In this document: piece after piece, positions 2,516-49,429 of the stretch
Numbering within the stretch: the first letter of the stretch is position 1
Layout of the letters: each line of letters begins with the position of its first letter
Source of the DNA: Squalus acanthias
Taxonomy: Eukaryota
Assembly: GCA_030390025.1 (NCBI GenBank)
Contig: CM059431.1
Coordinates: 157,792,001 to 157,856,000, forward strand
DNA length: 64,000 bases
Direction of reading: 5' to 3'
Notes under the pieces: generated by a model
What the model was told of the DNA's origin: nothing
Database searches by the model: none
The model's input: only the letters and a program-made list of their open reading frames with translations
Program-made: the position numbers and the translations under genes

Positions 2516-2603
2516 TCACACATCCACTCTCAGTCTGAGTCTGGATTCCTGCAGCGAACCCAGGAGTCTCTTTCCATTTGAACTGAACTCATTCCCCCAC
2601 AGC
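2516..2603 (-). CDS. NLR terminal coding exon (last LRR/cap, stop)
   Basis: Acceptor aatctgtttcag. Encodes [28 protein letters not shown] then TGA (2518-2516). Confidence 0.88.
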
Positions 2604-5600
2604 CTGAAACAGATTAAAGATTAAGCAGGAAATAAACAAATTGAACAACAGTTTAAATAACAGGGAGACTGGCGTTAATAATTCAATATTAATTTCAGAC
2701 AAATGTTACCCCTAAATATGACTGGATCCCATTGATATTTTATTTATTACATTAAAACTTAACACAAATACTCACCGGATCCGCTCCAGACTCCTGCAGG
2801 TCCGTATGAAGCGGCTGAGAGCGGGGACAGACCGGTCTGTGAAGGAGTTTGATCCCAGGGACAGATCCGTCAGTGAGCGGTTTGTACTGAGAGCGGAGGC
2901 GAGATCCTCGGCACAAGAATCTGTGAGACCGACATCACATAGCCTGGGGATCAGAGAGAGAAATAACAGGAATCAGAGTAAATCCCTAGAGTTTTTTTAA
3001 TAACACTATTACTGATACTAATAATAATGTTCAGTGTCAGACATCCAGTTATTATAAACACAATCTCACACAGTCTGGTACTTACTCCAGTTCCTGTATT
3101 TTACAGTCTGGGTTCCTCAGAGCCGCTGACAGTGGTTTCACTCCTGAATCTCCCAGTTTATTATAACCCAGGCCCAGAACCGTCAGTGACCGGTTTGTAG
3201 TGAGAGCGGAGACGAGATTCTCGGCACAAGAATCTGTGAGACCGTTATTATACAGCCTGGGGATCAGAGAGAGAAATAACAGGTATCAGAGTAAATCCCC
3301 AGAGTTTATGAATAACACTATTACTACTAATAATAATGTACAGTGTCGGACATCCAGTTATTATAAACACAATCTCACAGTCTGCTACTTACTCCAGTTC
3401 CTGTATTTTACAGTCCGGGTTCCTCAGAGCCGCAGACAGTAGTTTCACTCCTGAATCTCCCAGTTCATTGCCGCTCAGTCTAAACACAAACAGAGAGAAA
3501 CAAACTGAATCAAACTCCCGATCTGATATATTTTTCTCTCTCGGATATTGCAACAATCACTGAAAGTACTTCAGGATATTAATAACCCGGTTTCCCCCCG
3601 CGATTTCCCGATTGGGCAGGGCGTGTGCGATCGGTGGCGGGTCGGGTGCGGCCGGGGTCGGTGGCGGATCGGGTGCGGCCGGGGTCGGGTTGGGCTGCGA
3701 TCGGTGGCGGGTCGGGTGCGGCCAGGGTCACTGGCGGGTCGGGAGCGGCCGGGGTCGGTGGCGGGACGTTAGCGGCCGGGGTCGGGTTAGGCCGCGGTCG
3801 GTGGCGGGTCGGGTGCGGGCAGGGTCACTGGCGGGTCGGGTGCGGCCGGTTCGGTGGCGGGTCGGTAGCGGCCGGGGTCGGGTTGGGCCGCGGTCGGTGG
3901 CGGGTCGGGTGTGGGCAGGGTCAATGGCGGGTCGGGAGCGTCCGGAGTCGGTGGCAGGTCGGCTGCGGCCGGGGTCGGTGGCGGGTCCGGTGCGCCCGGG
4001 TTCGCTGGCGGAACGGGTGCGGCCGGGGTCGGTGGCGGGTGGGGTGTGGCCGGGGTCGCTGGCGGAACGGGTGCGGCCGGGGTCGGTGGCGGGTGGGGTG
4101 TGGCCGGGGTCGCTGGCGGAACGGGTGCGGCCGGGGTCGGTGGCGGGTCGGGTGCGGCCAGGGTCGGTGGCGGGTCGGGAGCGGCCGGGGTCGCGGCCGG
4201 GTCAGGTGCGGGAGGTGTCGGTGGCGGGTCGGGTGCGGATCGGGTGCGGCCGGTGTCGGGGGCGGGTCGGGTGTGGCTAAGGGGTCCGGAGAATTAGTGG
4301 AAGCGGGATTGATGACGTCATTTGATAAGGCGCACATTGAGTTTGACCTTTGTGATGTCAGTGTTTAACAATATTGAGGTGCTGCAAACAATGAGAAACT
4401 TTGCACAGAGGACCACGGCTGCACCCAGGCTCTCCCATAACTCCCTCCATATGCTTATGTTGGAAGCCACAGCACGCAGGGAAGTTCTCTTCACTTCCAA
4501 TGGGCGGAAGAGACTAACACAGCCTGGTTGCCCATTGCTCAGTGGGGTTCAAGCAGGGATGTCGTCAGGAGGATCAGGCTGCAGTGGCGCAAACCTTTCA
4601 ATGATCTCAGTAGATCACGAAACGTAACTACAAAACCACCCTCAAACTCATCCTGCTGTGCCACTCATCACATCCCCAATACTCTGCCTTACCTACCCTA
4701 CTCCTGCACATTATTACTCACACCAACTTAACTTGCACCTCCACCCGTCCCTCTCTATCTATATTATCACAACCCCATCTCACTAACCACCCCTCAGACT
4801 CTCCCTGAACCTAGTCCAAACATATCAACTAACAATACACAAGGATAGGCAATTATGTGTTTTAGCGAATGTTCATGTGAAGTTTCTGTTGTGTGCACCA
4901 TTGGATGAGGCGTAGTGAGTTGCAGTGAATAGGTGAGCCATAACGGTACCACACGCAATGGTTATGAGTGTGACAGGAATGGTTTGGGAATTTTAGGGAT
5001 GCTTTATGTTGTTGGTGTGGTCTGGCGGCAACCTGGAGCATAATGTGGCATCCAGGGCATCCAGCGTCCAGTGAAGATAATCTAGCCATGGTGAGGCCAA
5101 CTGTGGCGTCCTGGTTAGCATTGTGGACGAGTGTTGATGTTCTCTGTGCTGTGCAGCATCAGGAGTTGTGGAATGGGTTGGTGTTGTTGTTGGTGCTGCT
5201 GGTGTTCCTGGTGCAGCAGGTGTTTGGGCTGATGGTAGTGTTACTCTGAGGCCCGAGGTGAGACAGTAGAAACCATACCCATGCTGATGTAATAGATGGC
5301 AGGTAAATTTGAGATGACAGAAGCAATCGGTCAATGCTGAGAGAGGTAGTTCCATTGAGGGGACACTGGATAGAGAGTTTTCTCCAAACACTTGCAACTA
5401 GCATAAAGCTTGCTCTGTCTTCCAAATGCAGTAAACAACAGCTTCTGTGCTTGGAAAGGGAACAACTGTGAGACGGGAGCTTTAATAGCACATTTCTAGC
5501 TGTCAAGTAACGAGATGATTCCATGGCCATTCAATTCCCGCCCTGTTTACCTGACGTAATCCCCGAGAAGCGTGGACAACGTGGGCGAATTGGTAAACTT

Positions 5601-11600: not shown

Positions 11601-14600
11601 GGGCCGTGTAGCCTGATCATGCTCCTATTTCGTGTGTCCAATTCTGTTAGGTTCAGGAGATGGTTCTGTGATATTAGATTGGCGGTTAGGATCAGATCAG
11701 CCATGATCTTATTGAATGGCGGAGCAGGCTTGAGGGGCCAATTGGCCTACTCCTGCTCCTATTTCTTATGTTCTTATGTTCTTATGTACTGCATGGATGA
11801 ACTACAGAATTTGTTCATCCCAGTGTGGCATAAGAGTAAAAATAAAATGGTGACTCAACCGTGGCTAACAAGGGAAATTAGGGATAGCATAATTTCCGTG
11901 GAGATGGCATATAAATTGGCCAGAAAAAGCGGTAACCCTGAGGATTGTGAGCAGTCTAGGAATCAACAAAGGAGGACAAAGGGATTAATTGAGAAGGGGA
12001 AAATAGAATATGAGAGTATGCTTGCTGGGAACATAAAAACTGACTGTACGAGCTTTTATAGATATGTGAAGAGAAAAAGATTAGTGAAATCATGTGTAGG
12101 TCCCTTGCAGTCAGAAGTGGGGAAGTTATAATGGGGAACAAAGAAATGTCAGACCAATTAAATGCATATTTTGGTTCTGTCTTCACAAAGGAGGACACAA
12201 ATAATCTCCCAGAGAGGGTCTGATGAAAGGGAGGAACTGAAAGAAATCAGTATTTGCAGGAAAATTGTGTTAGGGAAATTGATGGGATTGAAGGCCGATA
12301 AATCCCCAGGGCCTTATAATCTACATCCTAGGTTACTTAAGGAAGTGGCCCTAAAAATAGTAGATGCATTGCTGATCATCTTCCAACATTCGGTGGAATC
12401 TGGAACTGTACCCATGGATTGGAGGGTAGCTAATGTTACCCCACTATTCAAAAAGTGTGATAGAGAGAAAGCGTGGAATTACAGATCGGTAAGCCTGACA
12501 TCGGTAGTGGGAAAAATGCTAGAGTCCTTTATAAAGGATGTAATCGCTGAGCACTTGAAAAACAGTGACGGGATCGGACAAAGTCAACATGGATTTACAA
12601 AAGGTAAATCGTGCTTGACTAATCTACTGGAATTTTTTGAGGAAGTAGCTGGGAAAGTAGATAAGGGAGAACCAGTAGATGTGGTGTATTTGGACTTTCA
12701 AAAGGCTTTCGATAAGGTCCCGCATAAGAGATTAGCGTGTAAAGTTAAGGGACATGGGATTGGGGGCAAGGTATTGACTTGGATAGAGAACTGGTTGTCA
12801 GACAGAAAGCAGAGAGTAGGAATTAATGGGTCTTTTTCTGAGTGGCAGGCAGTGACTAGTGGGGTACCGCAGGGATCGGTCCTTGAAACCCAGCTATTCA
12901 CAATATATATTAATGATCTAGACAAGGGAACTAGATGTAATGTCTCCAAGTTTGCAGACGACACAAAACTGGGTGGGCGTGTGTGCTGCGAGGAGGATAC
13001 CGAGAAACTCCAGGATGATTTGGACAGTTTGGGTGAGTGGGCAGAAGCGTGGCAGATGCAATATAACGTGGATAAATGCGAGGTTATCCAATTTGGTGTC
13101 AACAACAGAGCCGTGTCCACTACGGTAGAGGGTAATCCTCGGTTGAGGAAAAGGGAAGACATGTCGGAAGCATTAGTATGGAACGTGGCATCGTCAGAGC
13201 AGATGCGGCAGAGACGGAAAAACTGGGAGAATGGACCAGAGTCCTTACAGGAAGCGAGGTCGGAGGAAGTGTATTCCAGGTAGCTGTGGGAGTCAGAGCG
13301 CTTATAGTGAATACAGAAAATGCTGGAAATACTCAGCAGGTCAGGCAGCATTTGTGGAGACAGGAACAGACTTAACGTTTCAGGTCGATGAAGCTTCGTC
13401 AGAACGGTGAGGAAGGGTCATCGACCTGAAAGATTAACTCTGTTTCTTTCTCCACAGATTCTGCCTGAGCTGCTGAATATTTCCAGCATTTTCTGTTTTT
13501 ATTTCAGATTTCCAGCCGCCGCAGTATTTTGCTTTTGATTTATGGTAAATGTTTCCCAATAGCAGTAATGGAGTTTATTCTGTCCCGTTACAATTTTAAA
13601 TGTCCCTTGTGCTCCGAGTTTAATGGGGAAGGGAGTCTCTCACTTTATTCCCCTTAAAACTGGCACTATATTTATTTCAGGTGTAACTGGCCTGACAGTT
13701 TTTGGGCAATTTACGGAAGTTCCCTCCCCGAGTGGGGCCTCACACACAGGGGGCGGATTATGGGGAATTCCCGGGTTCACTGCCCCCGGTTTACCAAGGA
13801 GCCGCCCGATGTGTGTGAGTCCCCACCGCTGGCCGGTGTGTGTCTGTAATCCGGGGCTAATACCCCACAACACGTTAGATTGGAACCTTTTTACCGGCAG
13901 ATATAAGATCCTGAATAACAATTTTTACTCAATGTTCAGGACTGTGTATAGTTGTAAATATTTAAAGCTGAAAGAATTCCAGATTCCCCAAATTTCCCAA
14001 TCCAGGAAACTAACCACTGGACAGGACACACCCTGCACGGTTTTGGAGTAAATATCGAACTGTTAGTGATTTAAACTCGGGTTACTCTCCTGTCTCCAGT
14101 TGAAATGGTGGATGTGGAAAATATTTTAAATTAATTTTATCTTTACTGCCGGGTTTTATTTTATGTTTATCTTCTGCTGCACAGCCTTATTAAATATGAC
14201 TTATTGCAATTAAATTATCAGTCACTCAGTGACCTGTATTTGCTGATCCGTCAAAGACTGTAAAATCCCTACTTGTTCACAAGGGTCCGTTCCAGATTCT
14301 CCAGTCCTTAGGGAATTACTAACCGTTCCTCTTATTATTGTTCATATTTATGTTTCATCTGCTTCCCTCTGGTTTAACTGAACTGTTTGTTTCCCTTCAT
14401 TATGGAGCAACAACACAATTCGTGACTATTCTAAAATTAGCCCAAAAGTTAGAGACAAATAAACTGTTACCCCAAAACCCGGCATTTGTGCAGTACGGGT
14501 CCCAGCCGCTGGAATCCTTCACACTGAATGGAGCAGTTATGCAGATCGAGGTTTTTTATTGTATCACAGAGTCCAATGACATGAGACAGGACCGCACAGT

Positions 14601-17600
14601 CAATCGGGGTCAATCTCAATCCACGAAAAGTAAGTGTTTTCACAGATCCCACTGTGGCCCGAGCCAGTGCTTTATTCTGAGACTCAAACATGTAGTGGAA
14701 TGTGTTCAGGAGGTTTATTTTATCAGTTTCACTCTCTGTGTTTCCAATCTGTCCTTCAACCTTCTCCTTCACCCAGTCAATCACTCGGCAGGTGGTTTGA
14801 TGAAGAAATGGACCCAGAAACTCCTCCAGGGGCCGAGCTGACTGTGGGGAGGAGAGACCAGCAACAAAACGGAGAAATATCTCAAATCGCCCATCTTCCT
14901 TGCTGTGGGCTTCTCTGAGGAATTTCAGGATGTCCCCGGGATCTGGAGTCAGGAAATGTGCGAGTGCGGCTACAAACTCTTGGATGGTGAGGTGCGGGAA
15001 TGTGTACACCACGCTCTGGGCAGAAACATCTCTCTCCAAAAGTTCCATCATGAACCCAGACAGGAACTGGGAAGGTTGCAGATTGTATTTGATCAAATCT
15101 CCATTTCTAAACACAATCTTCTTCTCGGAGACTCCTGTGAAGGCCATCTCACCGATCTTCAGTAACACATCACGGGGGCTTTCAATCTCTCGGCCATGGT
15201 TTTTCAGAATGTTGTAAATATAGTAGCAATATAGTTGGGTAATGGTTTTGGGAACTCGCTGCTGATTCCTGTCTCTTTGTGTAAAGAAGGGACCCAGTGA
15301 CAGACCGAGGATCCAGCAGTAGGAAGGGTTGTAGCACATTGTGTACAGGATCTCGTTCTCTTCCACGTGTTTAAAAACTGCTGCTGCCACAGTCTGATCT
15401 TCAAAAAACTTGTTGAAATATTCCTTCCGTTCTTCACCAACAAATCCCAGGATTTCAGCCCAGACACTGATCTCAGCCTTTTCCAATAAATGTAATGCAG
15501 TGGGGCGGCTGGTCACTAGCACTGAACATCCTGGGAGCAGCTTGTGCTGTATTAAACTGTACACAATGTCAGAAACTTCACACCAGCATTCGGGATGTGT
15601 GCATATGTACTGAGGTTCTGTATTTCTGCGATTGTCAGCAAAATCGATACTGTCCTTGAATTCATCCAAACCATCGAATATAAACAGCAATGTCTCTGGG
15701 TTCTTCCAGAGCTCTCCCAGAATATTCCCAAAGTAAGGATACAGATCCAGTATCAGATTCCTCAGGTTTATTCTACAGCTAATAGCGTTCAAATCCCGGA
15801 ATTTAAAGCTGAAAACAAATTGAAAGTGTGGGTATATTTTCCCAGTGGCCCAGTCATGAACAATCTTTTGTACCATTGTTGTTTTCCCAATCCCCGGGAC
15901 TCCGCTCACTGCTCCTGAACTTCCAGAATTGAATTTTGTCCGGGAAAAACTGCTGTTGAACAATTGATCAGTTCGGATTTTTTCCAGCTCTCTCCGGAGA
16001 TGTTTCTCTCTCCACTCTTCATGGTCTCGGCCTCTTGCCAGCAGTTCATGTTCTACAAGTGTCCGATCTCGAACAGTAGAAATGACCGTTAGCTCAGCGT
16101 ATCGATCAACCAGCTGGAACATCTTAACCTTCTCCTTTATTAGGATAGTGTTTACTCTCAGTGTTTCAGTTTGAACCCGGAGTGCTTCCTTGTGTTTATG
16201 TTGAACATCTTCAATTAGAACAGACAAAAAAGTTTTCAATGTTAGTTATAATGACAAAGAAATCTCCGATACACTGGTCTGCTTTTCAGTAAAATGTAAC
16301 AGGATCTACTTCGATATTTTAATCGAGGACAGTTAGAAAACGAAAACCAACATTTCCTGAGAATCTTGTTTGACAGGAACTTTCGGAGAGAAGTTTTAAA
16401 TCAACATTGGACACTAATATTTACATAACATGGCGAGCTGGGTGAAGGTGGAATGTTCCCTCTGATGGTGAATACTATCTGTCGCACAATGTACTGCAGA
16501 CATCTCATTACAAATCCACATGTGATTCTGATTATATGGCTTCAGTGGTTATAATGTAAAAATGATTGAACCCCCACCCAGCAGAGCGGAGCTTTTGTAC
16601 AAATAGAAAATCGGAAATTGGGAAGCACTGAGAGAGGGACAGGCTCACAATGTACTAATTGGGCAGCACTGAGAGAGGGACAGGATCGCAATGTACTGTT
16701 TGGGCAGCACTGAGAGTGGGACAGTCTCACAATGTACTGATAGGGCAGCACAGAGAGAGGGGCAGGCTCACAATGTACTGATTGGGCAGCACTGAGAGGG
16801 GGACAGGTTCACAATGTACTGATTGGGCAGCACTGAGAGAGGGACGGGTTCACAATGTACTGATGTTACCCAATTATTTGATCAGCACTTGTGTGAGCTC
16901 TTGAAAAATTCTATACATTTCCGGTTAACATGTCACAGGGAAATGTAAATATTATTGTGAAGGGAAAAAGGGGATTAGCAGCAACAACTTGAATTGATAT
17001 AGCCCGTTCAACTTAATACAAACGTCCCAAGAGGCTTTGCAGAAGCGTAATCAGATAAGATGAAACACCGAGCTAAATAAAGAGATATTAGAACGGGTAA
17101 CCAAAAGCTTACTCAAAGAGGTAGACTTTACGAGTGAAAAGGCGATAAGTAGAGGCGGATAGGGTTAACCAGGGTATTCCAGAGTTCAGGGCCGAGGCTG
17201 CTGAGAACACAGCCGCCAAAATTGTAGGAGTGAAAATCAGGGATGCACAAAGTTCAAAATTGAGGAGTGCAGATATCTCGCAGGGTTGTAGGCCTGGAGC
17301 AGATTGCAGAGATAAAGAGGGGTGAGGTCATGGAGGGACTGAATACAACGATGATAATTTCAAAATCAGGGCTCTGCCAGACACGAGAAAAAGTAGGTCA
17401 GCGAGCACATGCGTGATGGGTGAACGGGACTTGGTGCGAGTTCCGATAGGCACAGCAGAGTTTTGGATAAGCTCAAATTTACAGAGGATGGAACGTGGTT
17501 GGTTTGCAAGCCTTAGCGTGTTGGAATAATTGAGATTGGAGATAACAAAGGCATAGATGAGGATTGCAGCATTAGATGGGCTGAGGCAGGGGAGCAGACA

Positions 17601-23600: not shown

Positions 23601-26600
23601 TCACTGCTCCCTCTCCTCCTCCAGTCCCAAAAGCAGTCCTGTGACACCACCCATGATTATAGCCAAACTATCTATGAGGCAGCCAACAACAGTGCAAGAT
23701 CAGGAGCATCTTGCCCTCTTTAAACAAAGCAAAACTATCCAATGTGATAAAACACAGCAAGAAACGCCACGAAGTTTACCAGCTGCCTGAAACGACAAGT
23801 CAGTTACCAAATTTTAGGTTCCCCATGACCCCTTTCAATAGCACTGATGAGGGCTCCTTCCTGCCGGTTTGTGCCTGGTGTTGCTCGGCGGGTTCAGCAC
23901 GTGGCGTGAGATGTTGCGGCGTAGCAAAAGCGGGAAAAGTTCCACTTGAAGCGCAGGACCCTCATTAAAATAACATTTCAACTCTTAAGTTATACTGACC
24001 TGCACTCCCGACATCACAGCGAAGCCCGATCCGCACTTCAGGCTGGAAGTGTGCGGACACTTCCTGTCCACCATGTCGGCCGCAGGAGGCCGATAAACAG
24101 CTGAAAAACGAGCAGTGCGCGACCGAATATCTAAGCCAATCACTAAGTGCTACACTCACTGGTACATCATCCATTGAATCATCCAGGGAAGCCCCAATAA
24201 CTTCATTTTCTCTGCTGATTAATGGCTGTTTTTATCCGACTGACCACTGAGAGTTTGATGTTTTATCCCGGTCAGTGACGTGCACTGGCAGCAAAGGCCA
24301 GTTGCAGGAACAGCTGGATAAACTACTGGAGTAATGACAACATCTGCAAATTTACAGATAATCCCAAGCCTGGTGTGAATTGTAACTTCACCCCACACAT
24401 TTGAATGACACATTTAAGTATCAGTGACAAGTGAAAATGAAGTTGAATTCTTTTTGCCCAGCTCTTGAACTTTTCACCCCCAGATTCTAGACATCTCGAA
24501 ACCAATGGTCAAAGTTAAAGCCTCTAATAATCAGAAGCGAAATAACCTGTTTGAAATCATCATCCCATCACCTACCTTTCAGCTGAATGGGAACTTCGGA
24601 TAAACATTCTGTGGCTTTCATGTCATTAAATCGAAAGAAACCTGTTTAAATAAATTAGCTTTCATGAAAGCAAATCTGTGAACTACTTTAGTAAAGTATG
24701 TAATTTTAGATGTGAAATTGAATTCCGTGTATGATTTTACCGTACCAAGTTCCTGTATTTCTTTCAGTATTTTGTCCAACTTTGGTACCCCATGACGCAT
24801 TTTCACAAAGGATTCCCACATTGTCCTTCGGGCCCGAGAGCCTTTCTCCATCACCAGATTTAGGAGAAGTTTGGAACTGTCCGCCCGGTTTCCCTTCTCC
24901 ACGAGATCAGTGATTTTCTGTAAAGAATAATAATGAATATATTGAGGAGCGGAGTGAAATATCAATTTCACCCCATACTCACCCTGTTTATTGAATTCGA
25001 TACTTTTGATTCCGTTCAACAACAGGACCACGGCAATTAATTTAATTGAAGTGAATATTAGTTACCGATTGGTAAATTTTTGACACTAACTTCGCTAGTT
25101 GGTTTGGCATGGATGAATGACGCTGTTCAGCAGAATATTGCGCAGCAGGTTATAAATACTCACACAGACGAAGTTTACTCCTTCTCAGAAAGTGCAGATA
25201 CTCTGAGGTCCATGAAATTTCAATGATTCTTGCAGGGATTTACTGAAGCGGTGGGATAAATCGCTTTTCCATGGGAATATGTGAGGCCATTTTACCTGGA
25301 TGTCCTGCTCCTGCTAAGATCATGTAGACCCAACCACTCCAGGGACTGTACTTCATGTATTGAATCTCCGCACCCCAATCTCCCACATTAATCTGAATAC
25401 AGCTGTCTGACTCCATCAAATGCTGTCAAGGGGAATCCTAAATATCTGCTCATTGACATCTCCACTAATTAACGGTGGTTGGATTATTTCTACTTATTGC
25501 TTCTGCTGTAGCAACATTGAGTTCCCTCCAGTATTTTTTCACTCTATACTTAATTCGATAATCCACAGTTTTATTCAATTGACACCAATTTTTTGAGAGA
25601 TTTTTTTGGACACATTAATGCTTTCGATACTGGACGGGCTGCTACAGATTCAACTCAATGTAAATTGGGGTTGACCATTGGTCTCGTCTGAGGCTTGTAT
25701 CATGTGTCTGGTTTACTACTTACGGTCCAAGTTCCACAGTATTATCTACAGTTCGATTGTTTTATCTTTTCAAGCATTCATAAGACCCGGATCATGTTCC
25801 CCTCCTCACTTTTTTTCCTGTAAGGTGATAAATTCAGCTCTGTGACTGTGTTTTGTAAAGAAAGGTCCTCGGGCCTAGTATGACCGTTCTGCTCTGCTCT
25901 GACCCCACTCCCCATTATTCGTTCATTCAGATGTTAGGGGGCTCAATCCTGCTCAGCAATGGCCTCAGCAATGTTCTGTGCAACTATAAGCCATGAATGG
26001 GAGTGTTTAACCTAATTTGGTAGGGGGATGGGAACCAGGATGAAGAATTACAGAGGAGAAACAAGGTGTATCGAGCATTGCGAGAGACAAATAGCAATAG
26101 AATATGAAACAGTCCAGAGAGAGGAGGAATCAGACAGGGGAGAAATGCGAAACAGACTAAGGCTTGTGTAGAATGCATATGCCTCAATGCACGGGGCGTG
26201 ACCAATAATGTTGTTAAGCTGTAGGCATATAGGTTATGATATAATAGCAAGATGGATAACTGGCTCAAACAATGAGAGGAATCAGAACATAACATTCCTG
26301 GATACAATGAGTTCAGGGTGCATGAGGAAGAAAAATAGTGGGGTGGGGGAGGGTGACAGTAGACTGGGGAAAACACAGAGTAATTGCCAAGGGGGGATGG
26401 AATTCCTGAAATGTTTAGACGAGAACATTCTTGATTAATATATTTCCATCCCAACAAGGAAGGAAGCAGTGCTAGATCTAGTTACGGGCATTGAAGTGGG
26501 GAAAGTGGAGCACGTTTCAGTCGGACAGCATTTGGGGAACAGCGATCACAATATCATTAGGTTTCGAGCAGTAATGGAAAGGGAGAATGAACAATCTAAG

Positions 26601-29600
26601 GTGAATATGCTCAACTGAAATAGGGCTTACTTCAGTGAGCTGTAAACGGATCAGTTGAATTGGAAACAAAGATTGGCAGATAAAAGCGTAAATGAGTAAT
26701 GGGAGGCCTTCAAAGAGGAGATATCACAGGTACAGACCAGACACGTTCCTATGAGGGGGAAGGAAAGGCATTCAAAGCTAGAGCGCCCTGGATTACTAAA
26801 GATATAGAGGTTAAACTTAAACAAAAAAGTTGGCTTATAATAAATGTCATATTCATAACACAATGGAGAGAATCAAGAAGCATACAGAAAGTGCAGAGGA
26901 GAACTGAAACCGGAAATATGAGGGCCTAAGAGACTGTATGAGAAAATATCATCGGTTAAAATAAAGGGGAATACTATAGTCATTTATAAATATTTAAATA
27001 GTAAAAGTTTAATCAAACGAATGCTGGGGCCGAATAAGGACCAAAAACGAGATCTCTTTGTGGAGCCAAAGGGCATGGCTGAGGAACTAAATTAATGCGT
27101 TGCATCTGTCTTCACAAAGCAAGAGCGTGCTGCCTATGTCACAGTAAACGAAGAGATAATAGAGAAATTGGATACGTTGCAAATAGGTAAAGGGGAGGCA
27201 CTTAAATTATTGGCAGCACTCAAAGTATAAACTCCACCCTCTCCGGATGAAATTAATCCTCAGTTGCTGAGGGATGTAAGGGTGGAAATTTTCGTTTTGC
27301 AAGCTACAATTATCCAATCCTCCGTGGACATGTGAGTGGTGCCAGAGGACTGGAGAGTTGCCAATGTCACACCTCTGTTCAAAACAGAGGAGAGGAAAAG
27401 CAACTGCAGGCCAGTCGGCCTAATGTCGGTGGTGGAGCAACTGCTAGACAATCATACAGGGCAAAATTGTCACTTGGAAAGACATATGTTAATAAATTAC
27501 AGCCAGCACCAGGGATGAGGGTCTTCAGTTACATGGACGGGATGGAACTGTCTGTTTGACACCCCTTATCTAGATGCATAATTGGGGCACTTTCAGTAAT
27601 TCTTTGGTATCCCGTGATGAGAAATTGTCTGGTTTGGTTAGTATTCAGATTCCAATTTTTCCTACTACTTGTTTGGAAAAGTTAGGAACGTTCTCATTGG
27701 AACAAAGAAGGTGACCTAATAGGGGTTTTAAAGATGATGAGATGATTTGATAGAGTCGATAGAGAAAAAACTATTCCCTCTGGTAAGAAGTTCAATAACC
27801 AGAGGTCATATATATAAAATCACTGAAAAAGATCTCGAGGGAGGACGAGGACAATTGTTCTCACTGAGAGTTGTCAGGATTAGGAACGCTCTACCTGAAA
27901 AGATGGTGGAAGCTGATTACACAAATAATTTTAAAGGGAGTTGGACAGGAACTTGAGAATGAGGAACTTACAGGGCTATGGACAAAAGGTTGGAATTCGG
28001 GACTAAGCAGGACTGTTATTTCAAAGAGTCTGCAGAGACACGACGCGTCAAATGGTATCCGTCTGTGCTATATGTTTCTGTAATTCTACTAATTATAGCT
28101 GTTTAATTCGCTTGAATATCCTGAGGATCTTCATAGAACAACAATTTGATTTTGCTCTGGTATCTGAATCAATATAAATTGGATCATTCTATTCAGTTGA
28201 TCCGACACTCCCCACAGGTTTTTTTGGATGGTTTGCGCTGTTTGGGTCCAATACTTGTTCACTGGTTTAGCATTTTCTAAAAAAATATATTTCCTTTACC
28301 ACGCAGATAATTTTTTACCCTCTCACAGTTCCTCGATATACTTTAAGTAGTTTGTAGGTCAATCAACTCATGAATTCCATCCAAATTCCATTAGTTGATT
28401 CCCGCCTCTGTTTCCCAGTGCTACTACAATTCTTGGATCCCTTTGAGTTCAGCCCACGAAGGGTTATATCGCTCCCGGTACCCTGTCCTTTCTTTGTACA
28501 GACACTGACTGATCTGCTGGGTATTTTAACATTCGTGTTGTTGTTTCATATTTACACCATTAACAGTTAGAATCATTTCTTTCCTATTTGATCTGTTTCT
28601 CTTCACTAACATTCTGTGATTCTAAGATCTGATATCCTGTCAGTACTTTGATATTTAAATAATCCAAACTCATTCTGTGTCCCTCCCACTTACCCGATGT
28701 TCTTGTCCACTGAAATGCCTCTCGTATGTTAACAACGAGCTGACTCCGTCCACCCCTCCTTCAATCGCCTGTTCCAGTCTGTCCCGGTAGAATTTCGTCA
28801 ACTGGAACAGATGGAAATCGTTGCACTCTGTCAAGAACTCAGTGATTGTAGAGTTCGGAACTATGAACACAAATGGGGAAAACTAAACACATTATTCACT
28901 TTATATCCAAGCTGCAACATTTCCTCTTATTCCAGACGGCTGAAGCCTCCTGTGAGCCACATCGAACACCTTGTGAAAAACCATATAAAACGCACTTGCT
29001 ACATCCCGTCGATCTACATAGTGAATTCTTTAAAAACAGTGTTTAAATTTCTCAAACACGACTACTAATCCGTGCCAGCCTCCCCTGATCACCCCCTCTC
29101 AACGCTCACTAATTCAGACTTCAATTACAAATTCGAGCAGTCTGCTCTCGACTGCCATAGACTAGCTAATCCAGTTACCCGATTTTCCGCTCTCCACCAT
29201 TGTTGAACAGACGTTACTTGGGCTCCTTCAGCGATCAAATATATAGTCTATATCTAAAGCGGATTGATAAATTATGCAGTCTCTTCCTATCTCCTCTGTG
29301 ACTTCCTTTAACATCCTGGAGTGCATTTTTTCTGGGACCATTGACTTATCCACATTGGCTATTTTTCTCAAATCCAAATCCTTCTCTACAGTTATCTCTA
29401 ACTATGCTCCCACATCCTCCTCTATTACACCAACATTCGCACTACCAATTCATGTTTAGAAACTAAATGAAATATATGATATCTCCTTAAAACGTCATCC
29501 TCCACAATTAGATTCCCCATTCATCCCGAGTCCTACAGCCTTGAATTATTATTTCACTTCTAATAAACGCTGATTTTTATATTATCCGGAGGCGTTGTCC

Positions 29601-35600: not shown

Positions 35601-38600
35601 GGACAAAGGGCTTAATCAAGAGGGGCAAAATAGCTTACGAAAGCAAGCTGGCGGAAAATATAAAAACTAACTCCAAAAGCTTTTATAAGTATATCAAGAG
35701 GAAAAGACTGGTGAAAACCAAAGTTGGCCCATTGCAGTCAGATACGGGGGAATATATAACGGGAAATAAGGAAATGGCAGACCAACTAAATGCATACTTT
35801 GGGTCAGTCTTTACGAAGGAAGACACAAAAAACCTCCCTGGGATATCGGGAAAAATAGGGACATTTGCAAAGGAGGAACTGACGCAAATCAATATCTCTA
35901 AGGATATGGTGTTAAGGAAGCTAAAGGGATTGAAGGCGGACAAATCCCCAGGGCCTGATAACATGCATCCTAGGGTGCTGAAGGAGGTGGCCCTAGAGAT
36001 AGCGGATGCACTAAGTATGATTTTTCAGAATTCATTAGACTCGGGAACAGTGCCCATGGATTGGAGGGTAGCTAACGTTACCCCACTATTCAAAAAGGGG
36101 GGTAGGGAAAAATCAGGTAATTACAGACCTGTAAGCCTTACATCAGTTGTGGGCAAAATGCTGGAGTCCATCATTAAGGATGAAATAGCGGAGCACTTAG
36201 CAAATGGGGACAGGATAGGACAGAGTCAACATGGATTTACAAAGGGTAAATCGTGCTTGACTAATCTATTGGAATTTTTTGAGGGAGTAACTGGTAAAAT
36301 AGATGGGGGAGAGCCAGTAGATGTGGTGTACCTGGACTTCCAAAAGGCCTTCGATAAGGTCCCACATAAAAGATTAGCAGGGAAAATTGAAGCTCATGGG
36401 ATAAAGGGGAAAGTATTGACGTGGATAGAGAACTGGCTGTCAGATAGAAAACAGAGAGTTGGAATAAACGGCTCATTTTCTGAATGGCAGGCAGTAACAA
36501 GTGGGGTACCGCAGGGATCTGTCCTGGGTCCCCAGCTGTTCACAATTTACATTAATGACCTGGATCAGGGAGTCGGATGCAGCATTTCCAAATTTGCAGA
36601 CGACACTAAACTAGGAGGGGGGGTGGGCTCAGAGGAGGAGACCAGGAAGCTCCAGAGCGATTTGGACAGACTGGGTGATTGGGCGGATAAATGGCAGATG
36701 CACTATAATGTGGACAAGTGCGAAGTTATCCACCTTGGGTGCAGGAACGGGAGGGCAAATTATTATTTAAATGGCAATAAATTGGGAGAGGGGGAAGTAC
36801 AGAGAGACCTGGGTGTTCTTGTACACCAGTCACTGAAGGCGAGCATGCAGGTGCAACAGGCGGTCAAGAAGGCAAACGGTATGCTGGCCTTCATAGCAAA
36901 AGGGTTGGAATACAGGAACAGGGATACCTTGCTGCAGCTGTACAGGGCACTGGTGAGACCACACCTCGAGTACTGTGTACAGTTTTGGTCGCCTCATCTG
37001 AGGAAAGATGTTCTTGCCATGGGTGGCGTGCAGCGGCGATTCACCAGGCTGATACCAGGAATGGCGGGATTGACCTATGAGGAGAGACTATGTAGTTTAG
37101 GGATGTACACACTGGAGTTTAGAAGATTGAGAGGGGACCTCATAGAAGTGTATAAAATTCTGACAGGTCTAGACAGACTAGATGCAGAAGGAATGTTTCC
37201 CTTGGCGGGTGAGAACAGAACTAGAGGACATAATTTAAGGATAAGGGCTAAACCATTTAGGACAGAAATGAGGGGGAATTTCTTCACTCAGAGGGTGGTG
37301 AACCTGTGGAACTCATTGCCACAGAGGGCAGTGTACGCCAGCTCATTAAATATATTTAAGAGGGAATTAGATATATTTCTACAGGCAAAAGGGGTTAAGG
37401 GTTACGGAGAGAAGGCGGGGACGGGATACTGAATTGGAGAATCAGCCATGATCTCATTAAATGGCGGAGCAGGCTCGAAGGGCCGGATGGCCTACTCCTG
37501 CTCCTATCTTCTATGTATCTATGTATCTATGTAAGGACAGAAATTATATTTAAAGAATATTGTGAACCCACCTGTGTCCATTCTCATTCTTGAAGATGTT
37601 GTATCTTCTCCCCTGTTTGGACCTTCAGCCATGCTGGTGGCAGGCGTTCCCAGATTCGGATGGTCTGTAATAAATATATTAATAGGAGGGTTAGACGGAA
37701 ACATTAAAATGAGAAGGAAACGATGCTTGGTTAAACATGATATCAGGTCCCTCCTCTCCCATCAGTACAACAGCTGTTAGCTCTGGGATCGAGCATTTCC
37801 CGAGTGTTACGGTTAACTCTCCACATCAGGTGTGACACAGACAGCTGCCCAGTGAAATCCAGTGAGTCCCGCTGATCTCCACAACCGAGTTCCAGACAGG
37901 CTCCCGTCGGCCGAGACTCTGCACTGGGAGTGTCCATTCGTGAGATTTACTCACATAGTGCAGGACAAAACCAGCCTTATTACTGAGGTAGAGAATATTC
38001 TGCAGGGAAATAACGAGCGGGTGATCATTGATGTATTCAATGATCCTTCACTAGGTTTTACAGTGTGGCAGTGTTGGATTATTTTTATTTACAGGTTGGT
38101 TTTTAATATTTTTGATTTGTTGTTTTTTGATATTAAATTCTGCTATTTTATGAAAATGATATCTATCCACCTACACAATATATAGCTGGTTGTGATCCCT
38201 CTAGTCTCTATGGGCAGTGACATTGTTCGTGTGTTCATGGAGATGTGTCCTGGTTGGTGTTTCTATATGAATATATTGATCATATCTCTCATGGTGTCAG
38301 CACCTGACTAATGAGCCCTTGCAATGTAGAATCATAGAAAGATAGAATCATAGAATGTTTACAGCACATATGGAGGCCATTCGGCCCGTCGAGCCCGTGC
38401 CGACTCTCTGCAAGAGCACTTCAGCTAGTCCCACCCCCCCCCGCCCTTTTCCCGCAGCCCTGAATTTTTTTTCCATCGGGTTCTAATGCAATTCCATTTT
38501 GAAAATCACGATTGAATCGGCCTCCACCACCGTTTCAGCCAGTGTATTCCAGATCCTAACCACTCGCTGCGTAAAAAAGTTTTTCCTCATGTCGCCTTTG

Positions 38601-41600: not shown

Positions 41601-44600
41601 CCGGGAGCCAAAGTAGGTTCACAAGGACGGGGTGATCGCAGCAGCGATTTTCATTCGTTTAAATTTACGAAGAGTGAAAGGAGTAAAGTGACTCAGAGAG
41701 CACTGGAAAAATCGAGTCACCGGGTGAAAAAACCATGGATGAGGATTTCAGCAGCAGCTGGGCTGATGCAGGGGCGAAGATTGATAATACTACGGATTGG
41801 ATTTAGGCGGTCTTTGTGATGCAGAGAATATCGGGTCGGAAGCTCAGCTTGACGTTAAATCAAATTCTGAGGTTGTAAGCAGTCTGATTCAATCCGAAAC
41901 ACTGTCTGGGACGGGGATGGAATCATTGCCGAGGGAACAGAATTCGTGGCGAGGCCTGAAGATCATGTCTTCGGTCTTCCAAATGTTTAATTTGAGAAAT
42001 ATGTATTTCATCTCAGACTGGGTTTCGGAAAAGCAGCGTGAGACAGCAGAGGGAGTGGATGGGTGGATAGAGGTGGTGGAGATGTGGAGCAGTGTGTTAT
42101 CAGCGTGCATGTGATAGCTGATCACTTTTCTTCGGACAATGTCTCCATGTAGAAGAGAAATAGGAGGGGGCGAGGGGCGACCAGTGGGGGACTCCAGTGT
42201 TAACAGTCTGGGAGCAGAAAGATAAACCCATGATGAAGTTTCTCTGGGTACGACTGGTTGGTTAAAAGTGGAACCAAGCGAGGGCAGCCACACTGAGCTG
42301 GACAACGGAGGAGAGGCGTTGGATGATGTTGTGCTCGACCGTGTCAAAGATTGCAGAAGCCGAGAAGAATGAGGAGGGGTACTTAATCACGATCAGTCAT
42401 AGAAGGTTTCATTTGTGACTTTGATTAAAGCCAATTCAGTGCTGTGGCAGGAGCGTAAACCCGATTGGAGAGATTCAAACCTAGAGTTATGAGAAAGATC
42501 GGCAGAGATTCGGGAGGCAACATGACACTGAGCGGAGACGGGGAGATGGAGATAAACATGTCTAACTCTTCGCCCACGTGTCAAACTGGGCGAGTCTCTT
42601 TGATCAAACTCTCTCCTCTGAAATACATAATTCCCATTTGCAGTATAACATTTTAGAAACGGTTAAACTCATTTCAAGTTAACAAGACATTGTACATCCT
42701 CCAGCTAGGACTGGAATCTCCCAGTTCCACTGGAGGAGTTTGCTTGTTGCAGGCATCAAAATAAGAACGAAGCTTCCAATAATTCCGTTTTAGAAAACTG
42801 CTTCAGAAAATGTGGCTTTGTCGCTTCTCACTTTATATATAATTACATAGAATGTACAGCACACAAATAGAACATTTGACCCAACTGGTCAAAGCCTCCT
42901 CCCACCCCAGCCCTGCAACAACACCCTACTGATCCAGCCCTACACCGCCACCCCACTGACCCAGCCCTACAACCACACCCCACTGACCCAGCCCTACACT
43001 GACAGCCTACTGACCCATCCCTACACCCACACCCCACTGACCCAGCCCTACACTGACAGCCTACTGACCCATCCCTACACCCACACCCCACTGACCCAGC
43101 CCTACACTGACAGCCTACTGACCCAGCCCAACACCAGCACCACACGGACCCAGCGCTACACTGACACCCTACTGACCTAGCACGACACTGACACCCTACT
43201 GACCCAGCACGACACTGACACCCTACAGACCCAGCCCTACAACGACACCCAACTGATCGAGCCCTACATAAACAACATACTGACCCACCCCTACAAAGAC
43301 ACCCAACTGACCCAGCCCAACACCGACACCCCACTGACCGACCCATACACCGACAACCAACATCCCCAGCCGAACACCGGCACCCCACTGACCCACCCCT
43401 ACAACGACAACCCACTGACCCAGCCCTACACCGACACCCCACTGACCCAACCCCTACACCGACACCCCACTGACCCACCCCTACGCCGACACCCCACTGA
43501 CACACCCCTACACCGAAACCCCACTGACCCACCCCAACACCGGCACCCCACTGACATACCGCTACACCTAAACCCCACTGATCCAGGCCTAAACTGACAC
43601 CCTACTGACCCAGCCCCTCACCGACACTCCACTGACCCACCACTACACCGACACCCCACTGACCCAGCCCAACACCGAAACCCCACTGACCCAGCCCCTC
43701 ACCGACACCCTTCTGACCCAGCCCTACACTGCCACCCTACTGACACAGCCCCACACCGACACACCAAAGACACAGCCCTTGACCGACACACTACTGACTC
43801 GGACTTACACCGAAACCCCACTGATCCAGCCCAACACCGAAACACCACTGACCCAGCCCTTGAACGAGACCCCAGTAACGGGGAGTGAGAGGTTACACTA
43901 CAAATTTAATGTCTGCATTGTGAAGTTTTACGTGTAACAGGAAGTGAATGTGACAAGGACGAGGGCAGCAATAAGTTTTACGCTTACAGGAAGTGTGCAT
44001 TATAAATAAGACTTTTAATTCTTTACTGCCGAATCTCCATGGTTTCGCTCATGATTAGGCAGATGAACTGGAATGCGTTCTCACTGCGTTTGTTGAAACT
44101 GGCGAGAATGGCAAGCGGACAAGTGTGAATGTTCTATGCAGCGCCTCCAGTGCTGGGAGGACTGAACAAATGAACAATATTCTCTATTATAAAAGGAATT
44201 GAAACAGGCGTTATCAATGTTAAAAATGCTTTATTAAGCCATGGCAACGGGAAACCCTATGAAGTATATGTTTCTATGCAGCCGGCTGTGTTATTATGTT
44301 ATTTAGCAGAAATTATTAATATGTATTCTCCGTGTGCAGAAGATGTTGCTGCTGCTACTGGGCTGACGAATACACAGATAGGAATTTGCAGTGAATCGAG
44401 GAGAATTCTGGTAATTGGGGAGGGGAGTTTTGAGAGTGCCTGGGCAACAGGTAATGCAAGGCTCACGTGAGGGTAATGATATAAATGAGTTAGTAGGCTT
44501 ATCTTGGGTTTCCGTGTGAGGTGGTTGAACTTCTTCCTGCAATGCAGCTGTTATGGCGCTATATTTCTGCTACCTCTCCCCACTCACTCCTTGCCTGGAT

Positions 44601-45256
44601 ATCTTCCTGCCATCTGATAGATAGAAGAAATCCGTATTCCTGGAGACTTCCTCCCGCAAAACCTCGAATTCAGTGTCCGAAAACTGGGCGGCCCTTGCGG
44701 GGTCATATTTTAAACTATATTATATATTTTTTTGCATTTTTTCCATTAAGTGAATGGACAGAGTTTTGTTGTAGTGTTTGAAATGTTCAGGGATGTTTAA
44801 TTTGAAGTGAGTTTCATTCTACTAACCTGTTTTTTGGTCAAAGTTTGTAGTATTCATATTTAATAAACCTTCGGGGGAAGGAGTCGGTTCACTTGTACCG
44901 TTTCCAGGGGCCTGATCACCTTCCCCAGGAGCAGGGCCTTGAATCTGACTCTGCTCACTTGTACAGGTTCCTGGGGCCTGAGCATCTTCCCCAGGAGCAG
45001 GGCCTTGAATCAGACTCTGTTCACTTGTACAGGTTCCTGGGGCCTGAGCATCTTCCCCAGGAGCAGAGCCTTGAATCTGACTCTGTTCACTTGTACAGGT
45101 TCCTGGGGCCTGAGCATCTTCCCCAGGAGCAGGGCCTTGAATCTGACTCTGCTCACTTGTACCGGTTCCTGGGGCCTGAGCATCTTCCCCAGGAGCAGGG
45201 CCTTGAATCTGGCGTTGTTTTCTTGCACCGCTTTGTTTACTTGATGAGTGCCCCAT
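2516..45256 (-). CDS. Spliced NLR immune receptor gene (myristoylation motif + 22-aa repeats + CARD-like + NACHT + LRR), 9 coding exons, about 1028 aa
   Basis: Exons 45256-44827, 28860-28694, 24917-24746, 24641-24576, 16208-14471, 3479-3393, 3256-3086, 2943-2776 and 2603-2516 all have GT/AG introns with matching phases (1,0,1,1,2,2,2,2). They sum to 3087 nt = 1029 codons ending in TGA. Small extra exons cannot be excluded without RNA data. Confidence 0.85.
2776..2943 (-). CDS. NLR LRR exon (168 nt, two LRRs)
   Basis: Acceptor ctgatccccag, donor CG|gtgagt. Encodes [55 protein letters not shown]. Confidence 0.92.
3086..3256 (-). CDS. NLR LRR exon (171 nt, two LRRs)
   Basis: Acceptor ctgatccccag, donor GGA|gtaagt. 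Encodes [56 protein letters not shown]. Confidence 0.93.
3393..3479 (-). CDS. NLR LRR exon (87 nt)
   Basis: Acceptor tttgtgtttag, donor GGA|gtaagt. Encodes [28 protein letters not shown], an RI-type LRR; phase 2/2. Confidence 0.92.
3590..5850 (+). mobile_element. Degraded PIF/Harbinger-type DNA transposon with Myb/SANT-like remnant
   Basis: 4391-4615 translates across a frameshift to [12 protein letters not shown]...RREVLF...AWLPIA...[14 protein letters not shown], a Myb/SANT pattern. Inverted match 3627-3646 vs 5803-5822 (19/20). Right end aaaattcccccc. Confidence 0.6.
3627..4275. repeat. G-rich 27-bp minisatellite
   Basis: Unit gtcggtggcgggtcgggtgcggccggg; period 27 (3631, 3658). Confidence 0.95.
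6253..6615 (-). mobile_element. Penelope-like element terminal (pLTR) fragment
   Basis: Homologous to 46260-46585. Contains a degenerate hammerhead core on the minus strand (CTGACGA...GAAAC). Confidence 0.8.
6662..13100 (+). mobile_element. CR1 LINE (ORF1 esterase end, ORF2 APE + RT), interrupted at 8073-11787 and truncated at 13100
   Basis: ORF1 SGNH-like [14 protein letters not shown] motifs LNARS, ITETWL, MGDFN; RT motifs [24 protein letters not shown]. The reading QTFKD resumes as CMDELQ after the insert. Confidence 0.92.
8073..11787 (+). mobile_element. Nested CR1 LINE with rearranged 5' end
   Basis: Degenerate APE/RT, ORF2 end at 11551, (TTCTTATG)n tail to 11787. Flanked by ACTG at 8069-8072 and 11788-11791. 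Confidence 0.92.
13105..13540 (-). mobile_element. Penelope-like fragment (RT thumb) plus inverted pLTR pair
   Basis: Minus translation [37 protein letters not shown]...NRGLP. Arms 13313-13401 and 13408-13496 are reverse complements. Confidence 0.85.
14471..16208 (-). CDS. NLR NACHT exon (pre-NACHT region, NBD, HD1, WHD, HD2, first LRRs)
   Basis: Intact 590-aa ORF with Walker A GVPGIGKT, Walker [11 protein letters not shown], sensor VLVTSRP and winged-helix FPHLTIQEF. Acceptor ctaattgaag, donor TTGGG|gtaaca. Confidence 0.97.
16605..16865. repeat. 41-bp minisatellite, about 6 copies
   Basis: Unit cactgagagagggacaggctcacaatgtactgattgggcag; starts at 16626, 16667, 16708. Confidence 0.92.
16975..18065 (-). 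mobile_element. L2-type LINE 3' fragment
   Basis: ORF 17328-17666 reads YFHLHNL...[14 protein letters not shown]...ELIQNSA, the L2 ORF2 C-terminal pattern. Confidence 0.85.
18081..18973. mobile_element. Non-autonomous PIF/Harbinger-type element (MITE-like), 893 bp
   Basis: TIRs gggggagaaattcag (18081-18095) and ctgaatttttccccc (18959-18973), 14/15 match; 3-bp TSD ATA on both sides. Confidence 0.88.
19922..19962. repeat. (TA)n microsatellite inside CR1
   Basis: Imperfect TA run. Confidence 0.9.
22840..23100 (+). mobile_element. RTE-clade LINE C-terminal fragment
   Basis: Translation [41 protein letters not shown] matches the RTE ORF C-terminal pattern. Confidence 0.8.
23317..23610. repeat. 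21-bp minisatellite, about 14 copies
   Basis: Unit tgctgtattcctcactgctcc. Confidence 0.95.
24576..24641 (-). CDS. NLR 66-nt linker exon
   Basis: Acceptor atttaaacag, donor AAAG|gtaggt. Encodes (G)[21 protein letters not shown](D); phase 1/1, joins the NACHT exon in frame. Not in the ORF track. Confidence 0.75.
24746..24917 (-). CDS. NLR exon: second half of CARD-like domain
   Basis: Acceptor ttattctttacag, donor TTG|gtacgg. Encodes [57 protein letters not shown]; phase 0 in, phase 1 out. Confidence 0.85.
25990..28085 (+). mobile_element. Old, internally deleted CR1 LINE
   Basis: Remnants [15 protein letters not shown] and [15 protein letters not shown]; 3' end SITRGHIYK...[10 protein letters not shown]; many stops. 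Confidence 0.85.
28694..28860 (-). CDS. NLR exon: first half of CARD-like death-fold domain
   Basis: Acceptor tgtgttcatag, donor CGG|gtaagt. Encodes [55 protein letters not shown]. Confidence 0.85.
30380..34460 (+). mobile_element. Old LINE (CR1/Jockey group, second family), RT 3' half, split by an antisense copy of the same family
   Basis: 30420-30607 reads [15 protein letters not shown]...HKCQAL. It resumes at about 33748 and includes [24 protein letters not shown]-rich end near 34460. Confidence 0.75.
30608..33747 (-). mobile_element. Near full-length LINE (same family), APE + RT, degraded
   Basis: [11 protein letters not shown] and [12 protein letters not shown]-side [16 protein letters not shown]-terminal [15 protein letters not shown]-rich tail at 30608. 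Confidence 0.88.
34880..35165 (+). mobile_element. Old CR1 3' fragment
   Basis: Reads [27 protein letters not shown]..., followed by a remnant of the CR1 3' UTR (gctcgaagggtcgaatg). Confidence 0.75.
35223..37532 (+). mobile_element. Young 5'-truncated CR1 LINE with uninterrupted ORF2 (APE end + RT)
   Basis: 741-aa open frame to 37432 with intact RT motifs ([26 protein letters not shown]); (CTATGTAT)n tail. Confidence 0.97.
38325..40925 (-). mobile_element. Degraded CR1 LINE
   Basis: ORFs 38483-38848, 39794-40006 and 40139-40450 carry CR1 ORF2 motifs; (ATAGAATC)n tail at 38325-38355. Confidence 0.9.
39449..39600 (-). mobile_element. Short CR1 3'-UTR-only insertion nested in the CR1 above
   Basis: (CATAAGAA)n tail and 3' UTR matching the reverse complement of 11640-11787. 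Confidence 0.85.
41200..42540 (-). mobile_element. L2-type LINE fragment
   Basis: [23 protein letters not shown] and [12 protein letters not shown] (YADDT-like); L2-type 3' end at about 41205. Confidence 0.85.
42905..43875. repeat. C-rich 27-bp minisatellite, about 35 copies
   Basis: Unit actgacccagccctacaccgacacccc; period 27 (42955, 42982). Confidence 0.95.
44827..45256 (-). CDS. NLR coding exon 1: MGHSSSK N-terminus plus five 22-aa repeats
   Basis: Acceptor ttttttgcag precedes exon start 45273. ATG is in good Kozak context (gagATGG). Donor is ACAG|gttagt. The 430 coding nt end in phase 1, matching the next exon (G|TT=Val). Confidence 0.75.
44888..45217 (-). repeat. Coding 66-bp tandem repeat, 5 copies
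   Basis: Period 66 (44941, 45007); encodes [22 protein letters not shown]. Confidence 0.95.
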
Positions 45257-45439
45257 CTCAGGCAACTTGTTACCTGCAAAAAACAATAATTTCAGGTTAT
45301 AGCAGGGTATATTAGAACAGAACAGAAACATGTGGATTCAAAATAATTCCATTGCAGCGCTGATTCGAAATCGAGAAACGAGGCCATCAATTTGTGAATT
45401 CTAAAATCGTGAAAAATATTTCCGCTGGTTGTTCATCAG

Positions 45440-48230: not shown

Positions 48231-48329
48231 GTGGTCATGGTACAGTGGGAGGTAGGAGGAGGTGGCAGAGAGATGGCCTTCACCCTCCGAAAGGTAGTGG
48301 ACTGTAGGAATATAAGAAGTAGGAGCAGG

Positions 48330-48860: not shown

Positions 48861-49429
48861 ACCTATAAATTGCAATTCTCCATGTCTGGGTTTTTCGTTG
48901 TTAGAATTCTGCATATCTTTAGTGATCATTAAATCACAAATTCTAGATGTTTGTAATTAGCTATGTATTTCCTTATAATTATATTTGTTTGTGAATGAAT
49001 AATTTACTCTGTCGGCGATAGACCTTGCTGATCTTTGAGATTGGTCTGTGCATCGTGTTTAGTGAACTGACTATGGTGTTTCCGTTTCAATCTTTCCATT
49101 TGAATTGTCACCAGATCTAAGCTAATTTATAATAGAGATCTAAGGGTGTCGGTTTGGGTTCAGCCCACCAAATAAACAGGCACGTGCCCGTCTGCTGGGC
49201 TCTGCCTCAGACCAGAGTCACTATTTAGATCAAATCCCTTTACTAGAAAACACGTAAAAGATTCACTTGTGACTGTGTGTTCAGAGACAGAACCTGATCT
49301 CTCTTCACATTTCATTGCACGGCCACATGCTGTATAATTGTGGTCGGTGCTCAGACTCTCCCAGTCTCATTCTCACCATTTAACGCCTTACCTTGTAACC
49401 TTTGTGTAACGTCTAAAGGAATAGGATAT

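Follow-up and report, generated by a model that had tools for sequence, protein, structure and literature searches.

We analysed a 64,000-nucleotide (nt) stretch of Squalus acanthias DNA (GenBank assembly GCA_030390025.1, contig CM059431.1, positions 157,792,001 to 157,856,000; hereafter the window), whose minus strand carries a gene for a nucleotide-binding, leucine-rich repeat (LRR) receptor (NLR). We favour, with considerable reserve, the reading that this gene encodes an intact receptor made of a repeat arm, a predicted CARD, a NACHT domain and LRRs, whose probably myristoylated start would tether the receptor to the membrane through the arm. In the gene structure by itself we have high confidence.

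Gene structure and family membership

Nine exons on the minus strand join into one open frame of 3087 nt (1028 amino acids (aa) plus stop). In our rebuilt model all eight introns have GT donors and AG acceptors, and the exon phases are consistent throughout. Residues 9-1028 align with P0354, an annotated protein of Heterodontus francisci, at 78% identity over 1020 columns with 4 gap positions, so that the exon chain, including the direct junction from the repeat exon (E1) to the first CARD exon, has an annotated counterpart. This end-to-end agreement places the predicted gene model far beyond chance. A preliminary description of this DNA had proposed the nine-exon, 1028-aa frame, with a 143-aa module in its own phase-1 exon and a junction from 44827 to 28860. 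The splice sites, phases and P0354 alignment bear out the frame, the module occupies 430 nt (143 aa plus 1 nt), and a junction of the 44827-28860 type is seen in 8 of the 11 annotated homologue models that carry the module. The nine-exon model is nevertheless incomplete: an additional intact exon, E1b, lies inside the 44827-28860 intron, and an acceptor and a leader lie upstream. No further LRR exon was found by homologue tblastn in the 11-kb intron 14470-3480, nor was a second copy of the CARD or of E1b found within the window. The linker exon and E1b were recovered by homologue tblastn; both fell outside the thresholds used when small phase 1-1 exons were sought de novo (Table 1).

The NACHT exon matches NACHT (PF05729, 2.3e-36), NLRC4_HD2 (2.6e-16) and NOD2_WH (2.4e-12) in Pfam, and its Walker A, Walker B, sensor-1 and winged-helix motifs are all intact. 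Among solved structures, NLRP3 gives the best sequence match (8e-50), with an alignment that begins 70 residues ahead of the P-loop, and it is also the closest by the fold of homologue P0104 (1.5e-27). The segment preceding NACHT aligns to its NLRP3 counterpart, yet gives no Pfam FISNA match at E≤1. LRR_6 matches occur on three of the four C-terminal exons, one of them above the curated cut-off, and LRRs are also present in the homologue model. Pfam detected no SPRY/PRY family on three full-length homologues, and the window frame ends after the last LRR exon. With a NACHT domain containing intact Walker A and B motifs and with C-terminal LRRs, the predicted product has the features that define an NLR.

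Of 8000 candidates scored against the NACHT exon, 2133 proteins match at E≤0.001. The listed matches, 120 in number, are all shark proteins with 'NLRP3-like' or similar names and 81-91% identity, and a search with the CARD region (391 of 697 candidates matched, 120 listed) brings in ray proteins. These homologies support the earlier proposal of a lineage-expanded cartilaginous-fish NLR and mark the gene as a member of a very large NLRP-related NLR family of sharks and rays. In a quick tree of 72 rows from 256 (a partly random pick, with four wanted rows lacking a full NACHT exon), the window gene lies inside a 66-row crown group with a Shimodaira-Hasegawa-like approximate likelihood ratio test (SH-aLRT) value of 100. 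The rows cluster mostly by species and the arm-bearing rows are scattered; the tree places the window gene no more finely than in the crown group as a whole.

Table 1 Exons of the NLR gene in window coordinates
Feature	Position	Strand	Details
Likely non-coding leader exon	49169..49400	-	5' end undefined, flanks 61-bp satellite array; contig of one relative
Repeat exon E1	44827..45273	-	17-nt untranslated region, ATG 45256, five 22-aa units, 14-aa tail, phase-1 donor
Exon E1b, overlooked in the preliminary description	37572..37664	-	93 nt, phase 1-1, ATG 37632, strong Kozak context
CARD exon 1 (predicted)	28694..28860	-	87% identity to P0003; fold of homologue P0125
CARD exon 2 (predicted)	24746..24917	-	81% identity to P0055; fold of homologue P0125
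22-aa linker exon	24576..24641	-	86% identity to P0055; splice sites
FISNA-like segment, NACHT, winged helix and HD2 exon	14471..16208	-	Pfam, NLRP3 match
LRR exon, 87 nt	3393..3479	-	Homologue and Pfam comparison
LRR exon, 171 nt	3086..3256	-	Pfam LRR_6 1.6e-5
LRR exon, 168 nt	2776..2943	-	Homologue and Pfam comparison
Last coding exon, TGA stop	2516..2603	-	Joined frame and homologue comparison

The repeat arm and the predicted CARD

The first coding exon opens with Met-Gly-His-Ser-Ser-Ser-Lys (motif Met-Gly-x-x-x-Ser-Lys) and holds five 22-aa acidic Gly/Gln/Pro/Ser/Thr units, encoded by a 66-bp tandem repeat of 4.9 copies with 95% matches; no Pfam family was matched on this exon. Homologue models predict that the arm is disordered, with residues 1-111 of P0104 having a predicted local distance difference test (pLDDT) score below 50. 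Coverage of the exon was assessed in runs from relatives of this organism (n=7, of which 4 aligned; RNA only by guess, 5-11% of words), with contig alignment covering window positions 43900-49400. Contigs overlap E1 in all four aligned runs, more deeply than most flanking bins: summed contig depth over the three E1 bins is 41-898 in each of the four, and nearly all neighbouring unique bins have 0-20, the lone exception being a depth of 175.5. Directly upstream of the repeat exon lies a CpG-rich repeat block (45501-46000, observed/expected 1.05), a possible alternative promoter.

The repeat module is found in 11 annotated shark proteins from Heterodontus, Pristiophorus and two Scyliorhinus species (nine longer and two short versions; ten with NACHT and one a partial model), with 0-23 repeat units per protein by a rough pattern count. 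The arm leads directly to the CARD exon in 8 of the 11, passes through an E1b-like exon in 2 and goes straight to NACHT in 1; a direct junction with the CARD exon is found in all listed Heterodontus isoforms that have the arm. Scyliorhinus canicula P0123 and P0357-P0359 run from a repeat arm to the NACHT exon with no CARD, and may be tethered receptors without a signalling domain. A repeat arm of weak similarity is present in ray proteins (local BLAST E 6e-8 to 6e-5, to be read with caution for low complexity). In four of these ray proteins the arm begins with a basic amphipathic helix (moment 0.79-0.96, charge +3 to +6), and arms opening with such a helix, not with Met-Gly, were observed in P0274, P0276, P0287, P0289 and P0177.

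Pfam detected no family on the two death-fold exons, nor in that region of three full-length homologues, and precomputed CARD matches were present in 0 of the 120 rows listed for the NACHT-exon search and 1 of the 120 listed for the CARD-region search. The assignment comes from structure prediction on homologues, to whose family the window's two exons are 87% and 81% identical. AlphaFold2 predicts a confident helical bundle for P0125, with 10-residue block pLDDT of 90-98 over residues 181-280. Of the top 29 VIA rows for this bundle, the title or the aligned N-terminal range identifies 27 as CARDs; the remaining two are a de novo design and an entry with no title. The best CARD match reaches Z 11.3, with root-mean-square deviations of 1.9-2.4 Å over 87-96 residues; the first death domain appears at Z 8.2, and the sole pyrin row stands at rank 48 with Z 6.1. 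We therefore rejected a pyrin (PYD) identity, as CARDs score Z 8-11 against Z 6.1 for pyrin and no Pfam PYD family was matched. The Pfam CARD family matched 4 of 12 selected relatives, 2 of them above the cut-off, P0243 being the only tested family member with a Pfam CARD above it. ESM Atlas CARD clusters scored 0.87-0.89, under the 0.9 lead level, and were left uncounted. Two results count against the assignment: Foldseek on the CARD model returned nothing at E≤0.001 (its top row is the ARC CARD), and Z 11 is below the VIA caution level of about 13 for helical bundles. The death-fold domain is predicted, from the fold of a close homologue, to be a CARD. Both the CARD-like domain and the disordered N-terminal module of the preliminary description agree with these homologue models. 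Family models P0129, P0131, P0132 and P0230-P0257 include many with two or three tandem CARD modules. P0203 and comparably weak matches may be unrelated.

The Met-Gly start as a candidate membrane anchor

In the mechanism that we favour, N-myristoylation at Gly2 would hold the receptor at the membrane. On activation, NACHT would oligomerise and the CARDs would cluster and recruit a CARD partner, for which caspase-1-like, ASC or RIPK2-type proteins are candidates, while an arm ~140 residues long would leave room for the oligomer and the CARD filament to assemble away from the membrane. Skipping of the repeat exon together with a start in the 37.6-kb exon E1b would yield an untethered 905-aa form, and the tether would be an optional accessory, retained in some paralogues and lost in others. 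According to a review of NLRP3, lipidation beside a death fold seems incompatible with the growth of a filament out of the active disk (PMC12224916); with a long arm, such a clash between membrane and filament would be avoided.

The myristoylation motif Met-Gly-x-x-x-Ser/Thr stands at the first in-frame ATG of the spliced form. A contig from one run, X2 (a relative, ~86% identity), aligns to 49175-49400 and then joins 45272 with 7 intervening letters. The gap has the length predicted for a splice between the GT that follows 49169 and the AG that precedes 45273, but its 7 letters are not those of the window. The leader contains in-frame stops 17-18 codons ahead of its donor and no in-frame ATG thereafter, so that translation of that spliced form could first begin in frame at 45256, an ATG with a strong Kozak context. 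A second copy of the leader exon, 85% identical, is located at 59270-59497 (-) beside a 61-bp satellite array (59505-63996) and diverges before the donor site.

Other residues of the motif accompany Gly2. In the 12 proteins with the module, the window's included, Ser/Cys6 and Lys7 are both kept in 6/6 Gly2, 0/4 Glu2 and 2/2 Ser2 proteins, several of these being paralogues or the same gene and hence not independent. Two S. canicula Gly2 proteins carry an additional Cys cluster, and all five isoforms of the P0104 gene begin with the Met-Gly motif; in three module-bearing models the module's Met is internal. Among the 300 CARD-bearing, Met-starting proteins out of 348 fetched, Ser, Thr or Cys occupies position 6 in 32/37 Met-Gly starts versus 67/263 others. 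With identical 8-mers collapsed and E1b-type starts dropped, the counts are 9/13 versus 26/123 (Fisher p=7e-4, an optimistic value since the rows are related).

Several observations weigh against an anchored 1028-aa receptor. Residue 2 of the module is Gly in 6, Glu in 4 and Ser in 2 of the 12 proteins, and among the Heterodontus genes seen, several have the Glu2 form and one has Gly2. Of the distinct 8-mers at ray E1b-type starts, 7/27 carry Gly2, and Ser6 is common there without Gly2 (15/20, p=0.28), so that the motif can be mimicked by a start rich in Ser. Myristate by itself gives only weak membrane binding, and a second anchoring signal is weak, because the arm is acidic (net charge -12), has only a short basic patch (+3) and contains no Cys before residue 54. 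The commonest annotated start is an E1b-type Met, at which 55 of 128 fetched homologues begin, and most family models have no arm. The leader joint comes from a single contig of a relative. If the transcript is unspliced, an alternative in-frame ATG is available at 45331 in weak context. The leader also holds a 49-codon ATG frame (49315-49169, -), which would join in frame at a second AG, 45265, and which acceptor 45273 turns into an out-of-frame, 136-codon upstream open reading frame (uORF) overlapping the start; the 45331 ATG and this uORF could reduce or bypass usage of 45256. We judged a coding leader less likely, as its 49-codon frame matched 0 of the 348 fetched proteins. Of the lipid anchor claimed in the preliminary description, the motif is thus present and the anchor is not established, Gly2 of this sequence motif being replaced in 6/12 proteins. 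On the sequence evidence, a lipid anchor is likely for this copy and optional across the family.

The gene may instead be an ordinary CARD-NACHT-LRR member whose arm is a tolerated, neutral translated minisatellite and whose Met-Gly is incidental to a Ser-rich start, an explanation to which we give distinctly less weight than to the tethered receptor. The spread of counted repeat units from 0 to 23, the lack of Gly2 in half of the module-bearing proteins and the absence of the arm from most paralogue models are what it would lead one to expect, and position 2 of the ray E1b-type starts varies (Gly, Asp, Ala, Arg, Ser, His or Val) with Ser6 present regardless. Exon shuffling adds N-terminal peptide repeats in other NLR families too, according to the accessible part of a zebrafish study (10.1101/022061). 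This explanation would less readily account for the retention of Ser/Cys6 and Lys7 in every Gly2 protein and of both together in no Glu2 protein, for the recurrence of Ser/Thr/Cys6, sometimes with extra Cys, in unrelated ray Met-Gly starts, or for a repeat exon whose frame stays open, and which can be spliced, in four further species of shark.

It is also possible, and we consider it comparably unlikely, that the main product starts in E1b (905 aa) or includes it (1059 aa), with the 1028-aa form minor or unused. E1b, found by homologue tblastn, is 68% identical to P0001 and is matched by 25/120 homologues at E≤1e-3. Its AG and GT are intact and the frame is open with or without it: inclusion gives a 1059-aa open frame and a start at its ATG, 37632, gives 905 aa, which makes the 1028-aa form one of three possible isoforms. 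The intact splice sites and frame, the strong Kozak context of the ATG and the prevalence of E1b-type starts among annotated homologues all speak for its use, as does P0121, which has the same linker type as the window gene and joins repeat exon to E1b to CARD. The direct passage from repeat exon to CARD exon in 8/11 module models and in all listed arm-bearing Heterodontus isoforms argues for the 1028-aa form, as does the coverage of the repeat exon in 4/4 relatives' runs; the 1059-aa form would in any case retain the Met-Gly start.

The tail of a long interspersed nuclear element (LINE)-type reverse transcriptase element (35126-37533, +; 768-codon open frame) ends some 40 bases away from the E1b donor. 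Over 998 bp the 3' part of this element shares 99.1% identity with a copy at window positions 1-999 (+), which indicates a young element. Two 3' fragments of the same LINE, about 3 kb apart, are contained in a 40-bp satellite array at 50593-57518 (~135 copies). Ray models have up to five tandem copies of E1b-type exons.

In NLRP1, activation proceeds by way of cleavage at the N terminus and a Gly/N-degron. That the arm here is a similarly cleavable or modifiable sensor (protease bait, phosphorylation, N-degron) and not a lipid tether is improbable: the arm is predicted to be disordered, is rich in Ser, Thr, Gln and Asp and differs between paralogues, as such a sensor might, but Pfam detected no FIIND family, either on the exons or in three homologues of full length, and the position of the CARD is N-terminal, so that the NLRP1 mechanism lacks a direct counterpart here. 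Identical repeats also contribute little recognition diversity.

The tethered receptor may exemplify a wider arrangement, which we put forward only tentatively: sharks and rays would have a large family of CARD-NLRs tethered to membranes, each receiving its anchor and a spacer of tunable length from a first exon that can be exchanged, and alternative use of the repeat exon or E1b would switch one gene between tethered and cytosolic forms. The anchor types would then comprise myristoylation, myristoylation plus Cys acylation, and a basic amphipathic helix.

Relation to known receptors and significance

The nearest known counterparts are annotated elasmobranch models: XP_067916099.1 (P0104) and XP_067916240.1 (P0354) of Heterodontus francisci, both named 'NACHT, LRR and PYD domains-containing protein 3-like', and the similarly annotated arm-bearing XP_038656754.1 (P0124) of Scyliorhinus canicula and P0121 of Pristiophorus japonicus. 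They share with the window gene the order of 22-aa repeat arm, CARD fold, NACHT and LRRs, at 72-78% identity over nearly the whole length, and differ from it in repeat number and residue 2; their names imply a PYD whereas the predicted fold is that of a CARD. We found no functional description of these models in the literature. Automatic models from four species of shark already imply this architecture, and the repeat module is not unique to the window gene. The preliminary description overstated the case in treating the layout as peculiar, and was right that 'NLRP3-like' labels conceal it.

The family is likely the NLRP-related expansion reported from the whale shark (Tan et al. 2021, PMC8455134), which is shark-expanded and, like the family described here, closest to NLRPs by NACHT. 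The available part of that account gives no N-terminal domain, repeat arm or lipid motif for it. None of its 17 listed Rhincodon typus entries was among 30 cluster look-ups, in which sequences were compared by accession alone.

Human and mouse NLRP3 resemble the window gene as its best sequence and fold match, including the FISNA-like segment, and NLRP3 also uses lipidation for membrane binding. It differs in having a PYD instead of a CARD, and reversible S-acylation at Cys130 with a polybasic linker instead of a long Met-Gly arm. The zebrafish NLR-B30.2 groups 2-4 (10.1101/022061) are likewise expanded, with FISNA, NACHT and shuffling N-terminal repeats of ~30 aa, a likeness to the shark repeats drawn by description and not by sequence; they have a PYD-type or no death fold and, in most groups, a C-terminal B30.2. 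Groups 2b and 4 also lack B30.2, and 'myristoyl' occurs 0 times in the accessible text of that study. In plant CC-NLRs, RPS5 and PML5 need Met-Gly-x-x-x-Ser/Thr with or without Cys sites for localisation and function, according to the part of PMC11467418 that was available. The N-terminal Met-Gly motif is common to these plant proteins and the window gene, but they are NB-ARC receptors in which the coiled coil adjoins the anchor without a spacer; the parallel is an analogy only. N-myristoylated NLR targeting was found described in the literature for plant NLRs only, and our search, whose coverage excluded most subscription papers, turned up no publication that describes a shark NLR as having a CARD, a repeat arm or myristoylation.

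Should the motif prove incidental, the gene would be an ordinary representative of a family numbering thousands. Its database names say PYD and the fold evidence says CARD, which in itself alters the downstream partner to be expected. Sharks are without clear NLRP orthologues and may use the expanded family for inflammasome-type sensing, as far as the available text of PMC8455134 goes. If the Met-Gly arm does work as an anchor, this would be a vertebrate NLR whose position is set by N-myristoylation at the end of a long spacer, and it would offer a natural test of whether a membrane-attached active NLR disk can signal, a question left open for NLRP3.

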